Source: Eledone cirrhosa (lineage: Eukaryota). From it: 64,000 nt of DNA. The stretch covers positions 307,086,001 through 307,150,000 of the forward strand of contig OZ024743.1 of assembly GCA_964016885.1 (NCBI GenBank), in the 5' to 3' direction. Both the position numbers and the translations under genes were made by a program. Of this stretch, positions 3,902 to 56,016 are shown piece by piece (the stretch's first letter is position 1; each line of letters opens with the position of its first letter). The notes beneath the pieces were generated by a model. The model ran no database searches and was not told where the DNA came from. It saw nothing but the letters and a program-made list of their open reading frames with translations.

Positions 3902-4376
3902 TTCAAATATTAATAAATATAGACATTCATGTGATCAAATATATTTTATTATATATATATTTCAGAGGTACTGAGCTGTTTCATCAGTACGTCCTCATCA
4001 GATAAAATAAATTGATGTCTGACACACCTCAACTGTGCTGATGGTTCAATTCCAGTTTTGGCAGTCATATATACATATATATATATATATGTATATAGAT
4101 AGATAGATAAATATACACGGGTGTGTATGATTGTGTATAGAAGATTATATTAATAAGAGGAAATCCAACTTTGTCTGATTTACTCGTTTTATTTACAATC
4201 CTTTAAAATTTATAATGGTATTATAATGATTATATGTGGTGACAGTAATCAAAGTAATCACAGTAATCAAAGTAATCACAGTAATCAAAGTGTGTATACA
4301 TATTTGGGGGACACACTGTATATATATATAGTGTAAGATGGTAATAGGGACGTAATAGGGACGTAAACGAGAGAAG

Positions 4377-4465
4377 AAAAGTTGCCCTTCATCAGCTGTT
4401 TACTACGGATCATAGATGTTTCGGCGCTTAAAACAGGACATCGATCCGCAGCGCGCCCGGGGCCG
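4377..4465 (-). ncRNA. Non-circularly permuted hammerhead ribozyme, copy A
   Basis: Minus strand GCGC..GCUGCGGAUC-GAUGUC^CUGUUU-uaa-GCGC-C-GAAACAUC-uau-GAUCCGUAGU-AAACAG-CUGAUGA-AGGG; stem III GAUGU/ACAUC, stem I CUGUUU/AAACAG. Confidence 0.75.
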
Positions 4466-4823
4466 TTAGGTGCTGCTAGTCATCTCACACCTTTTTTAAA
4501 AAAACAACCCACCTATTTGTTTCTATCATACCTAAACTGTATTTGTTATTTATTCCTATTAGTCCTTTAGGCCTAACATAGACTTCCCCACATTTATTAC
4601 CTGTATAGAAACGATTGTAGATATTAAAGTTAGATTTAATTTTAAAACCTTCGTTCTCTTTACTTTAAATATTTATACTCTGCTGCCCTCACTGTCCTCA
4701 ACAAGAAATTTAAGCTTCGTAAGACTATTTCGGTTGTTGTGAATTCCTTACTTACTCAAAACCTTAAGTGTACATTGAGCTTTTCACACCTTAACAGTGG
4801 GATATTATATTATAAACACTTCC

Positions 4824-26752: not shown

Positions 26753-26846
26753 AAGGAGTTTCCTTCGTCAGCTGTAAATGTATCCCGAACCGATGTTTCG
26801 GCGCTGAATTACAGGATATCGGTGTAGTTCGGGTGCGCCCGAGGCC
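26753..26846 (-). ncRNA. Non-circularly permuted hammerhead, copy B
   Basis: GCGC-a-CCCGAA-cuaca-CCGAUAUC^CUGUAA-uuca-GCGC-C-GAAACAUCGG-UUCGGG-auacau-UUACAG-CUGACGA-AGG; one A.C mismatch in stem III. Confidence 0.7.
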
Positions 26847-27092: not shown

Positions 27093-27101
<9 letters not shown>

Positions 27102-27560
27102 AAGTTAAATAAAAAGTCAAATGTTTAAAATTTAGCTTCGTTTATTACTGCTATATATATTTCGGTGACAGCCATCTTTGGCTGTGACCTCTTCAGGCAG
27201 TCCGAATTAGTGTGGTATAGACAAGTACATATGTTGTTGAGGTGTATAATTTTGTCAATACTCTGATATGCCCAGTTCCTGGTTGGGTTGTTATTTCACT
27301 GAGGAACTGGAATCATGATTTCACTGAGGAACTGGAATCATGATTCCAGTTCCTCAGTGAAATAACAACCCAACCAGGAACTGGGCATATCAGAGTATTG
27401 ACAAAATTATACACCTCAACAACATATGTACTTGTCTATACCACACTAATTCGGACTGCCTGAAGAGGTCACAGCCAAAGATGGCTGTCACCGAAATATA
27501 TATATCAGTAATAAACGAAGCTAAATTTTAAACATTTGACTTTTTATTTAACTTTATTTT
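27093..27560. repeat. Near-perfect palindrome (centre 27340/27341) of a PLE pLTR with an HHR in each arm
   Basis: Arms are reverse complements; HHR ACUGC-CUGAAGA-GGUcACAGCC..GGCUGUcACC-GAAA-UAUAUA-UA-GCAGU at 27147-27201(-) and 27455-27509(+). Confidence 0.85.
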
Positions 27561-31917: not shown

Positions 31918-31999
31918 GGATTATCCATCATCAGTTGTCTATTAGGCGTCATAGCCATTTCTTCGCGTTAAAGACAAGATACCTCAGCCTAGGGTGAAA
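31918..31999 (-). ncRNA. Non-circularly permuted hammerhead, copy C
   Basis: UCAC-cc-UAGGC-ug-AGGUAUC^UUGUCU-uuaac-GCGA-A-GAAAUGGCU-augac-GCCUA-au-AGACAA-CUGAUGA-U; stem I UUGUCU/AGACAA. Confidence 0.65.
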
Positions 32000-33257
32000 C
32001 AATAACTAAAGTAAGTTATTGGGATAAAAAGAAGTGGGTGGAGAAAGAGAAGGACATGTAAACAGACATGATGGGTGAAACAACGTAAAGAGAGGATAAA
32101 AGGAAAAAATCAAGTCAATAATTCATTTCGAGCATAAGAACGGGCGAATTTTGACGAGGAGATTTTGAATATTGAAAGTTTTTAGTTAGTTACAGTAATG
32201 GATTGTAAATTGGTCTTATTGTATTCTTATTCATGGATTAGAGTTGTTCTACAGCGAGATTTTCTAACGGTTTAATTTCCGGAAGTGAATATGAGATCCA
32301 AAATTAAGGGGCGCTAATGTGTAAGGGGAGGTAACTAGCTCATTAAATTAAACTATTTAAATTCTTTGCTCTAATAGACATTATATAGTGTCACAATTGA
32401 ATCCCTTTCACATAATGTTATATATTTATATTTAATTTTAAATACAGTCTATTCTCCCATAATATATTAAAGGTTTCATTAGATTGTTATCTATCCATTA
32501 CTAGACAAGATATAAGTTATGGAACAATGTATAGGTGTTTACATGTCCAATTAGTTAAATCCCTTATGTTAATAATTTAATCCTTTATATACAATTTATA
32601 TATTTAATTATAAATGTATATATAATTCATTATCACATATTACATTTAATGTCTCTACATATTATATATCCATTACTGTATATATTATAAGTAATCTAAA
32701 GTAATTATAATTGTTTCTACTTTAGGCACAATGCCAGCAATTACCCAGTGCATTACTGGTACTTTATTTTATCGACCCCGTAAGGATGAAAGGTAAAGTC
32801 AACCTCGGCGGGATTTGAACTCAGATCGTAAAGGGACGTAACTAAAGTAATTATAATAAAAGGTGGTGACTATATGTTTATTTCGAATAGTTATTGTAGA
32901 GTATAAGGTTTGAAATAAATAGGAGTTGTGTAGAGGAAAGAGCAGATCAAAGAGTGTGATGCTGTGGGGGAAGAAAAGTCCTAGAGGTGAAGTGTTAATG
33001 GTGGTGAGGAATTCAAATCTGACATTGATATATACTAGCGGCTAGGTTTAAAGCTATGGAATGAGTGTCGGTAGTGGTGCTGGCATGAGGAAAACACCTC
33101 TGATTTTTTATTTAGGAGGTCTAGTTTCGAAAAGATTATAGTACGGGTCTCTAGAAGACAGAGGTTACATAATTTATTCGGTGGTTTATACCTACTATTT
33201 CCCATTGAAGTGTGTATGGTCTATTCCTAGTTTTCAGAGAGTGTATGTAGCGAGATA

Positions 33258-50163: not shown

Positions 50164-50209
<46 letters not shown>

Positions 50210-50252
50210 ATGGAGCTGCGGCGCTGCAAATGGGTTACATATGAAAAAGTTT

Positions 50253-50326
50253 GTCCTCATCAGTGGCCTTCCAACCATCGTAGGCATTTCGTCGCATTAA
50301 AGGCCATATACCTCAGGTTGGTGCGA
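50253..50326 (-). ncRNA. Non-circularly permuted hammerhead, copy D1
   Basis: UCGCA-CCAACC-ug-AGGUAUA^UGGCCUU-uaa-UGCGA-C-GAAAUGCCU-acgau-GGUUGG-AAGGCCA-CUGAUGA-G; all helices pair fully. Confidence 0.8.
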
Positions 50327-50874
50327 GCAACGGCTAAAAAAAGTCGTTGGGACACGTAAATAAAGGGGACGCTAGGGTAAACAGACAAACTGGTTTAAGC
50401 AGCAGAAAGTGATGAAGAAGAAACAAGTCCCAGATTTCTATGAATATAAATTCGGTGGAATCGTGAACGAGAGAATAAAGACCATCAAACCTGGTTGAAA
50501 TGTGAGCAAGGAAGGAATTTCGCACAGGTCTAACGGGAGGAAGAAGGGGTCTGGTCTGCGAATTCGGTAAACATAAGTTCTGTGAAGCCGCCGACGAGAA
50601 AGAGAGAAAAAAAATTCATACCGGCTTGGCCAAGTGTCCGCGAGAAAAGGATTACGGACAGGTCAAACGGGAAGAAAGGGGAGGAGGAGAGGTAGTGACA
50701 GAGAGTGAGTGAGTGAAAGGTGAGGAAGAGGCTAACAGAGAGAGAGAGAGACTGCTAGAAAGGGTAAAGATCAAAGAACGAAACAGACTGGTGGCAGCGG
50801 AGGAAAAAATATATGTGTAAATATGATAATAATGGAGCTGCGGCGCTGCAAATGGGTTACATATGAAAAAGTTT

Positions 50875-50948
50875 GTCCTCATCAGTGGCCTTCCAACCGT
50901 CGTAGGCATTTCGTCGCATTAAAGGCCATATACCTCAGGTTGGTGCGA
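50875..50948 (-). ncRNA. Non-circularly permuted hammerhead, copy D2
   Basis: Same as D1 with one linker substitution. Confidence 0.8.
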
Positions 50949-51235
50949 GCAACGGCTAAAAAAAGTCGTTGGGACACGTAAATAAAGGGGACGCTAGGGT
51001 AAACAGACAAAATGGTTTAAGCAGCAGAAAGTGATGAAGAAGAAACCTCTCTCTCTCGTCTGCGACTTCACAGAACTTATATTTACCGAATTCGCAGACC
51101 AGACCCCTTCTTCCTCCCGTTAGACCTGTGCGAAATTCCTTCCTTGCTCACATTTCAACCAGGTTTGATGGTCTTTATTCTCTCGTTCACGATTCCACCG
51201 AATTTATATTCATAGAAATCTGGGACTTGTTCTTT

Positions 51236-51578
51236 CTGCCTGAAGGAGCACCTGCACTTGATGTCGTCCCAGTTACGTTGGACGTTTGTATACTGGGGGA
51301 CAGGGAGGCCTTCGCTGGTCCACAGGCCAGAGCCTGCTCCAGTTCTTGGATCACGTCATGTTCTACCGTCATTCTGAGGATCTCGCTGATGAGGGTGCTA
51401 CTGGAGGAGATTGAGGAGAAGTAAACCAGCAGTGCCATATCTAATGCGTATCGGAGGCTGCGGTCACCGAACCTCACAGGGAGCTTCGCCTGTTGCCAGC
51501 CAGTGCTGTCGAAATTGACATCACAAATGAGTTCCGCACTGCGCCGCATGGTGGCATCGAGTTCACCGAGGCGATCTG
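51236..51578 (-). mobile_element. CRE-like RT-region fragment
   Basis: ICDVNFDSTGWQQAKLPVRFG homologous to ICNVKFGDIRWQQATLPVRYGG in 35949-36725. Confidence 0.7.
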
Positions 51579-53200: not shown

Positions 53201-53625
53201 ATTCTTCATTTAAACATATATCATTGAATATCTGGTTAATATGTTCCAATTTCACTTTTTACCATTGTTTAGTTTCATAGCAATATAATGTCTAATTATT
53301 AATGTATTTTGGAACATTGTATGATCTAAAGTCCATTCTAACAATGATATTTCAACGGTTTATCTTCTGCATGATAACATTGGAAATGGCGGTAGATACT
53401 GCTGGAGGGGATGGGAGTAAAAGAGCATGGGAACAATGTTTACATTTGATGTTTTTTAATGTTTTTTCTTAGTTAGAGGTTTAAAAGTATTTGGGTGATG
53501 ACGTCGGAGTAAGGTTTTGTATTACATAAAACATTGCGTGACAGTTTTGCGCTATAGGATATGTCAGGCGAGTATTCGACACTAAAATCAGTTAACTAGA
53601 TTCCTTTACTGGGGCACGGCATACT

Positions 53626-54973
53626 TTTACTGGTTTCTGTCATTAGACTGTGGCCATGCTGGGGCACTGCCTTCTGTCACTGGTGTCTGTCATTAGACTG
53701 TAGCCATGCTGGGGCACTGCATTCTTTTACTGGTTTCTGTCATTAGACTGTGGCCATGCTGGGGCACTGCCTTCTGTCACTGGTGTCTGTCATTAGACTG
53801 TAGCCATGCTGGGGCACTGCATTCTTTTACTGGTTTCTGTCATTAGACTGTGGCCATGCTGGGGCACTGCCTTCTGTCACTGGTGTCTGTCATTAGACTG
53901 TGGCCATGCTGGGGCACTGCCTTCTGTCACTGGTGTCTGTCATTAGACTGTAGCCATGCTGGGGCACTGCATTCTTTTACTGGTTTCTGTCATTAGACTG
54001 TAGCCATGCTGGGGTACTGCCTTCTGTCACTGGTGTCTGTCATTAGACTGTAGCCATGCTGGGGCACTGCATTCTTTTACTGGTTTCTGTCATTAGACTG
54101 TGGCCATGCTGGGGCACTGCCTTCTGTCACTGGTGTCTGTCATTAGACTGTGGCCATGCTGGGGCACTGCCTTCTGTCACTGGTGTCTGTCATTAGACTG
54201 TAGCCATGCTGGGGCACTGCATTCTTTTACTGGTTTCTGTCATTAGACTGTAGCCATGCTGGGGTACTGCCTTCTGTCACTGGTGTCTGTCATTAGACTG
54301 TAGCCATGCTGGGGCACTGCATTCTTTTACTGGTTTCTGTCATTAGACTGTGGCCATGCTGGGGCACTGCCTTCTGTCACTGGTGTCTGTCATTAGACTG
54401 TAGCCATGCTGGGGCACTGCATTCTTTTACTGGTTTCTGTCATTAGACTGTGGCCATGCTGGGGCACTGCCTTCTGTCACTGGTGTCTGTCATTAGACTG
54501 TAGCCATGCTGGGGCACTGCATTCTTTTACTGGTTTCTGTCATTAGACTGTGGCCATGCTAGGGCACTGCCTTCTGTCACTGGTGTCTGTCATTAGACTG
54601 TAGCCATGCTGGGGCACTGCATTCTTTTACTGGTTTCTGTCATTAGACTGTAGCCATGCTGGGGTACTGCCTTCTGTCACTGGTGTCTGTCATTAGACTG
54701 TAGCCATGCTGGGGCACTGCATTCTTTTACTGGTTTCTGTCATTAGACTGTGGCCATGCTGGGGCACTGCCTTCTGTCACTGGTGTCTGTCATTAGACTG
54801 TAGCCATGCTGGGGCACTGCATTCTTTTACTGGTTTCTGTCATTAGACTGTAGCCATGCTGGGGTACCGCATTTTTTTACTGGCTTCTGTCATTAGACTG
54901 TGGCCATACTGGGACACTGCTTTTTGTCACTGGTTTCTGTCATTAGACTGTGGGCAAGCTGGGGCACTGCCTT
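53626..54973. repeat. 50-bp minisatellite, 27 units, alternating A/B variants
   Basis: TGGT(T/G)TCTGTCATTAGACTGT(G/A)GCCATGCTGGGGCACTGC.. recurs exactly every 50 bp from 53631 to 54931. Confidence 0.97.

Positions 54974-55405: not shown

Positions 55406-56016
<611 letters not shown>

Follow-up and report, generated by a model that had tools for sequence, protein, structure and literature searches.

A rewired hammerhead motif, predicted to be self-cleaving, at the 3' end of a Penelope-like repeat in Eledone cirrhosa

The window analyzed here, a 64,000-nucleotide stretch of the Eledone cirrhosa genome (GenBank assembly GCA_964016885.1, contig OZ024743.1, forward-strand positions 307,086,001 to 307,150,000), carries on its minus strand, at 4457-4389, all of the core letters of a hammerhead together with stems I and III (Table 1). 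A preliminary description of this DNA had taken the sequence for a permuted hammerhead with a GUC triplet and a predicted cut between 4437 and 4436, and every element that it listed is present. CUGANGA (here CUGAUGA), GAAA, and a UH cleavage site are all in place, and the three blocks follow one another in the order cleavage site-GAAA-CUGAUGA (S-G-C), not in the circular order S-C-G that Rfam types I to III require. No Rfam match was obtained for the motif, either at the gathering threshold or at E ≤ 10, and the same was true of the other motifs in the window. Stems I and III are as they had been described, stem I with 6/6 pairs and stem III (4442-4438 with 4419-4415) with 5/5 pairs, including the U-A pair; both adjoin the core and both covary, with compensating changes at 6/6 and 4/5 pairs, respectively. 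The conservation of the core expected of genomic copies was also found, in that the catalytic letters are kept over unrelated families; U16.1-A15.1 is invariant (13/13 copies), as is GAAA in alignment A2, where it was also a search criterion.

The stem II that lies under G12 and A13 is provided mainly by a strand upstream of the cleavage site, which we call x, rather than by the strand that follows CUGANGA. A GCGC/GCGC helix had been proposed just before C-GAAA; the helix itself held up, but its length had to be revised to 5 bp, and its predicted energy is -8.4 kcal/mol, compared with -4.1 for the classical stem II partner. Between x and stem I lies the 10-bp extension helix, again as originally proposed, which is separated from its neighbors by gaps of 0-1 nt in well-kept copies and which reaches a pair probability of 0.84-0.98 in a nested folding model, with about 0.6 for stem III. 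Taken alone, the stretch with the motif folds no better than its shuffles (z = 0.06), as is expected when a pseudoknotted RNA is scored by a nested model. The small hairpin that had been placed after the core can be formed in 52/83 family copies, with a GNRA loop in 31/83, but it did not survive as a conserved element, as it uses the last A of CUGAUGA and pairing after the core in 19 representatives is not above that of shuffles (mean z, -0.49).

Table 1. Positions of the motif at 4457-4389, of the repeat that carries it, and of the other motif-bearing insertions in the window
Feature	Position	Strand	Basis
Family A repeat copy, 5'-truncated (3' end of a ~700-nt noncoding Penelope-like unit)	4331..4468	-	Similarity spans 4468-4319 only; full units in L007, L019, L024
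Strand x, 5' partner in stem II, upstream of cleavage block	4453..4457	-	5/5 pairs with 4427-4423; compensates across families
Extension helix, 5' strand; link between stems II and I, continuous with stem III	4443..4452	-	10 bp with 4411-4402; 5/6 pairs compensate
Stem III 3' strand plus GUC triplet; predicted cut 4437/4436	4437..4442	-	Sequence GAUG-UC; cut site placed by analogy
Stem I, 5' strand	4431..4436	-	6/6 with 4401-4396; 6/6 pairs compensate
UAA linker, stem I to stem II	4428..4430	-	3-5 nt, mostly UAA/UUAA, among representatives
Stem II 3' strand (x'), ending in C11.1	4423..4427	-	Sequence, 13-copy alignment
GAAA core (4422-4419) plus stem III 5' strand	4415..4422	-	Sequence, alignment
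Extension helix, 3' strand, abutting stem I	4402..4411	-	Pair probability, representatives
Stem I 3' strand plus CUGAUGA core (4395-4389)	4389..4401	-	Sequence
AG after core: G10.1 (sole contiguous part of stem II) and a possible bulged A	4387..4388	-	Putative role
Fixed 3' tail of element, with 11-nt local duplication	4331..4386	-	Repeat analysis, copy comparison
(TA)n insertion target	4317..4330	.	Copies end in (TA)n
Second motif, A-like subfamily, other stem I and extension letters; predicted cut before 26814	26760..26840	-	Sequence
Third motif, family with U10.1-A11.1; predicted cut before 31977	31925..32000	-	Sequence
Family B insertion: 622-nt unit, partial tandem, two motifs (predicted cuts before 50928 and 50306), inverted piece 51047-51237	50200..51237	-	Repeat comparison

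The motif belongs to a repeat family, family A, with 43 matches (40 scored of 1,059 candidates in the 3.0-Gb genome). It had been assigned to a noncoding unit of about 500 bp bounded by (TA)n, a claim that the comparison of copies did not sustain: similarity to the family runs from the (TA)n at about 4330 to 4468, it stops at 4467-4468, and the sequence beyond, up to 4825, has no match in the other 29 family loci. The copy is therefore 5'-truncated, about 30 nt before the predicted cut, and the 500-bp stretch is not the element. Longer copies of family A show a noncoding unit of ~700 nt, with partial tandems and inverted pieces; at one locus (L165, 1776-3197), many short repeats come after a family A unit, each made of a 36-nt segment taken from the region upstream of the ribozyme. 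With the rest of its unit missing and the ribozyme sequence intact, the window copy is probably an inert fossil.

A (TA)n target, partial tandems, an inverted 5'-truncated copy, and a one-sided tail characterize family A, and the same insertion pattern has been described for Penelope-like elements (PMC8557442). These traits do not name the Penelope-like clade because they are shared with Neptune and Hydra elements. Family B has a 622-nt unit in arrays of up to at least four units with (TA)n flanks, and its 3' ends lie at a constant distance past the predicted cut, about 70 or 119 nt. In having noncoding tandem units, one hammerhead per unit, and probable mobilization by Penelope-like elements, these repeats resemble the non-LTR retrozymes (Cervera and de la Pena 2020, PMC7229834; Li, Clavereau, Pollet 2026 preprint), but the hammerheads of the latter are of type I and their units mostly measure 170-400 nt, whereas the motif-bearing units here measure 620-760 nt and carry a rewired fold of S-G-C order.

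In a strict three-block scan open to any block order, the window yielded 3 compact motifs, each of them S-G-C, against 0.06 compact S-G-C motifs per window in 100 dinucleotide shuffles, only 1/100 of which had one; a looser scan found 5 motifs from 4 families. Several other repeats lie in the same stretch. Just upstream of the motif at 26814, at ~27100-27560, is a long, almost perfect inverted repeat whose center carries a 25-nt duplication, set between (TA)n and (TC)n. Another common repeat, on the minus strand at 3950-4110, has two close CTGATGA words and passes the block scan solely via AT-rich pairing. A minisatellite occupies 53609-54973 (27 copies of 50 nt, 90% matches), and a plus-strand fragment of a Penelope-like C-terminal GIY-YIG nuclease at 55519-55755 is cut off by (TA)n and has a Pfam match below the cut-off.

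Over the whole genome, a loose pattern gave 3,485 matches against 468 for its reversed control and a second pattern gave 170 against 12, and well over ten families with different helix letters were present among the matches listed and fetched. The motif, a predicted self-cutting hammerhead RNA, is present in the genome in thousands of copies. A scan of metagenome contigs yielded 17 loci, of which 12 have stems I and III; the other 5, without stem I, were taken as chance matches.

The natural variation among these copies bears directly on the wiring of stem II. In an alignment of 13 copies chosen for equal spacing and scored for a five-part structure, 91.3% of the cells were paired and 19/23 pairs had changed on both sides (0/500 shuffles), and controls in which the strands were slid gave 33-50% paired. 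The x helix was 87.7% paired, with compensation at 3/5 pairs; the classical stem II was 40% paired (90/500 shuffles). When x scores within families were compared with those across families, the own score was higher both in 18 genome representatives, which include one accidental second B1 copy (11.7 versus 9.0, p = 1e-4), and in 9 metagenome representatives (15.0 versus 10.1, p = 5e-5), and for the classical stem II the corresponding p values were 0.50 and 0.88. With a single fixed register, used for 20 of 29 clusters (9 were dropped, as stems I and III failed in that register, and the clusters are not independent), p was 5e-5 for stem I, stem III, and the extension, 0.008 for x, and 0.98 for the classical stem II. 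None of these p values represents an independent test, because the families are related and the registers were set by hand. Across unrelated families, in the genome and on metagenome contigs alike, four helices compensate and the core letters are fixed, which agrees with the selection on the fold that had been proposed from the window alone. As judged by this covariation, stem II is built mainly with the strand 5' of the cleavage site and not with the strand after CUGAUGA.

The S-G-C order has given its name to type SGC hammerheads (HRIMA-1 and variants; Eckert, Friedrich, Weinberg, Weinberg 2023, PMC10085705), RNAs that cleave in vitro at 0.007-0.19 per min and that, in that study, come only from metatranscriptomes and from no genome of a known organism. 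The block order, the core letters, a link of ~3 nt between stems I and II, and a helix clamping the far ends of these two stems are common to type SGC and the motif described here. In the published RNAs, however, stem II (5 bp in SGC-1) follows CUGANGA, and CUGANGA and its stem II strand were assumed to be inseparable, as block C (PMC10085705). Here, an intact block C, with at least 3 bp after CUGANGA, is lacking, the strands of stem II and of the clamp lie 5' of the cut site, stem III is joined to both strands of the clamp, and the motif occurs as genomic DNA, in thousands of copies. On sequence evidence, the wiring is a circular permutation of the published type SGC in which the strands for stem II and for the clamp between stems I and II have moved from the 3' to the 5' end; the chain appears to be opened right after CUGANGA, such that 0-2 bp of stem II stay contiguous. 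The rewired RNA is predicted to work like a hammerhead but lacks one defining feature of published SGC RNAs.

Alternatively, the motif could be an ordinary type SGC RNA whose contiguous stem II is very short, at 1-2 bp and a bulged A; the x helix would then be an accessory or storage pairing outside the active fold. The letters AG directly follow the core in 63/68 family A copies, where 2 bp of stem II could be contested by a contiguous GG; the first pair beside the core covaries in the B-type families (G-C in 74/88 B1 copies, A-U in 11/24 B2 copies, U-A in a small family); and a bulge at this position is common among Penelope hammerheads (PMC4209133) and is also present in SGC-1. Against this, no contiguous stem II pair is possible in 5/9 metagenome representatives, and x extends up to the C before GAAA in 8/9. 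Furthermore, among 155 motifs whose short stems I and III are perfect, none matches the published SGC descriptors as we re-implemented them, and only 11 have the 3 bp of contiguous classical stem II that make up a relaxed SGC form; a 4-bp helix to the upstream strand is found in 134/155, a count that has no control of its own. We consider this reading quite unlikely.

Rewired hammerheads also occur in Naiads. We read by eye the last 330-450 nt of 45 of the Naiad consensus sequences in the supplement of Craig 2021 and found the design in 9/45 (Bfor, Chem-3, Amil, Aacu, Anas, Movir-2, Obim, Ovul, and Esco) and not in the remaining 36; stem I is just 2 bp in Bfor, and the motif has decayed in Esco. 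In the original report, Naiads were described as being without a canonical hammerhead, and 8 were flagged "HHR_half_core" (Craig et al. 2021, PMC8557442), including two that bear the design, Ovul and Esco. Read by eye, the 3' ends suggest that Naiads swap ribozyme class by lineage. Other ends have what we take to be a classical hammerhead with a long stem II (nematodes), a twister-like motif (bivalves and Movir-1), or an HDV-like motif (hemichordates and Clytia 1-2). Families A and B share with the Naiads (TA)n targets, partial tandems, inverted 5'-truncated copies, and a tail at one end, in addition to the motif itself; they differ in having no ORF and no shown Naiad parent, and the fold is not described in the cited part of the Naiad report (PMC8557442).

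One metagenome contig (L364) places the motif next to coding sequence. Its predicted cut site lies 46 nt after the stop of an ORF, and it encodes an N-terminal GIY-YIG-like region (BLASTP E value of 5e-6 to a nuclease from the genome of the window) and, downstream of that region and in two overlapping frames, a reverse transcriptase (RT) with the Naiad DKA motif. An N-terminal GIY-YIG and an RT with DKA are the marks of a Naiad; L364 has both, and family A has neither. Pfam recognized none of the L364 ORFs. RT C-termini also lie just upstream of the motif in two further loci, L376, with the same motif, and L378.

In the E. cirrhosa genome, no ORF tied to family A or B was found in or beside their units. 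Naiad-like RTs are present as remnants, nearly all of the best of them with stops, and a degenerate motif lies about 530 nt downstream of 1 of 30 such remnants. A Naiad protein-motif pattern gave 2 matches, one a decayed remnant, with no motif adjoining, and the pattern for the published octopus Naiad motif gave 0 matches in this genome; a further locus (L312) holds a decayed look-alike of the octopus motif, without an ORF. Of the protein searches made via GIY-YIG to obtain a Naiad query, one had no match; in another, the 150 matches listed were at the C terminus or in short fragments, and the 6 that were inspected were not Naiad-like. Intact elements with a C-terminal nuclease are abundant, and in a GIY-YIG family search the fetched long ORFs with a nuclease had it at the C terminus and shared nothing with family A or B units. 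A high-copy RT family, represented by G000:C28:7498290 and about 70 similar matches, has open frames of up to about 780 amino acids in many members; it is a candidate helper of the young B family, and no sequence shared by the two was found.

A Penelope-like 3' end at another locus (L054, 258-990, plus strand) has a C-terminal nuclease and a minimal hammerhead of classical order, so both wirings coexist in this genome. The minimal type I hammerheads known from Penelope pseudo-LTRs (Cervera and de la Pena 2014, PMC4209133) resemble the rewired motif in their place near the element 3' end, in a possible bulge after CUGANGA, and in the dimer action proposed for them, but they have the classical order, a long contiguous stem II, and a weak stem III.

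The traces of cutting that can be read from genomic 5' ends are mixed, with a pile-up in family A that is absent from family B. Among 30 insertions of family A, 9 start 0-30 nt after the predicted cut, 6 read through it, 8 start further downstream, and 7 are without the region; among 30 insertions of family B, 21 read through the cut, 1 ends at it, and 8 end 38-105 nt after it. The cluster in family A may stem from microhomology between UAA and (TA)n or from stalling of the RT at the hairpin.

We can outline how the rewired RNA might act. The extension and stem III would fold first as one hairpin, with the cut site, x', and a single stem I strand in its loop of ~20 nt and the partners of these two strands hanging from its base. 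Docking of loop to base would probably be easier between neighboring units than within one. In most well-kept representatives, the extension and stem III are joined on one side by a linker of 0-3 nt, such that a monomer would have to bend sharply, whereas docking between units would avoid the strain; the same strain was noted by Eckert et al. for some SGC RNAs (PMC10085705). With docking between units, only tandem transcripts would be cut; cutting that depends on a dimer is established in other animal hammerheads (PMC4209133, PMC7229834). From this model of the fold, we lean toward cutting by a dimer or between units, regard cutting by a monomer as possible but doubtful, and think it unlikely that there would be no cutting at all. 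The cut RNA would perhaps be circularized by a host ligase, as has been shown for type I retrozymes, and would return to (TA)n through the RT and GIY-YIG nuclease of a helper Penelope-like element; circularization and copying back have been proposed for retrozymes (PMC7229834; preprint 10.64898/2026.07.22.740005).

The motif might instead derive from a hammerhead and no longer cut, being kept as a binding or template-switch signal for a Penelope-like RT. Such a role would fit the family B arrays, which mostly read through the site, and the apparent strain of ring closure in a monomer; in vitro cutting is poor for minimal Penelope hammerheads (PMC4209133), and 8/9 predicted Xenopus retrozymes did not cut (preprint 10.64898/2026.07.22.740005). 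However, unrelated families whose helices turn over have retained the catalytic letters, the U-A pair, and a base other than G at the cut site. Moreover, the motifs that other Naiads have at the same place, which by eye look twister-like or HDV-like, point to cutting as the shared job. We think a noncutting signal very unlikely. A chance juxtaposition copied along by a repeat family, without structural selection, could account for an isolated stretch that folds like its shuffles, for the missing Rfam match, and for copies of one repeat that are not independent, but it is scarcely credible and was ruled out by covariation across families, as the spacing is the same, and the paired letters differ, in families that are unrelated and in distant contigs from metagenomes. 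Our preferred reading, which we hold to be likely, is that the sequence in the window is a truncated copy of a Penelope-like repeat whose 3' end is a rewired hammerhead, predicted to cut after GUC and likely to trim tandem transcripts of the element to unit length.

A search of the open-access literature found no description of the rewired wiring, of an animal SGC hammerhead, or of a Naiad hammerhead fold; the name type-SGC was found in one open-access paper, and PMC13725137, in the passage concerned, merely cites the type. Noncircular permutations of the hammerhead were previously known only from environmental RNA and DNA, and a further-rewired form can now be placed in animal chromosomes at high copy, where the natural variation among copies defines every helix. 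This breaks with the published view of CUGANGA and the stem II strand after it as a single block. The balance of the evidence tips somewhat toward a seventh natural hammerhead wiring, beyond the six block orders proposed as complete, that would act as an inter-unit dimer and cut only tandem transcripts, and that would be the ribozyme so far missed in the Naiads of ctenophores, cnidarians, and cephalopods, having seeded thousands of noncoding repeats in this genome. Such a wiring would explain why hammerhead searches failed on Naiads and would weaken the argument that Naiads proliferate without a ribozyme, and descriptors built for type I must miss a class of retrozyme-like repeats.
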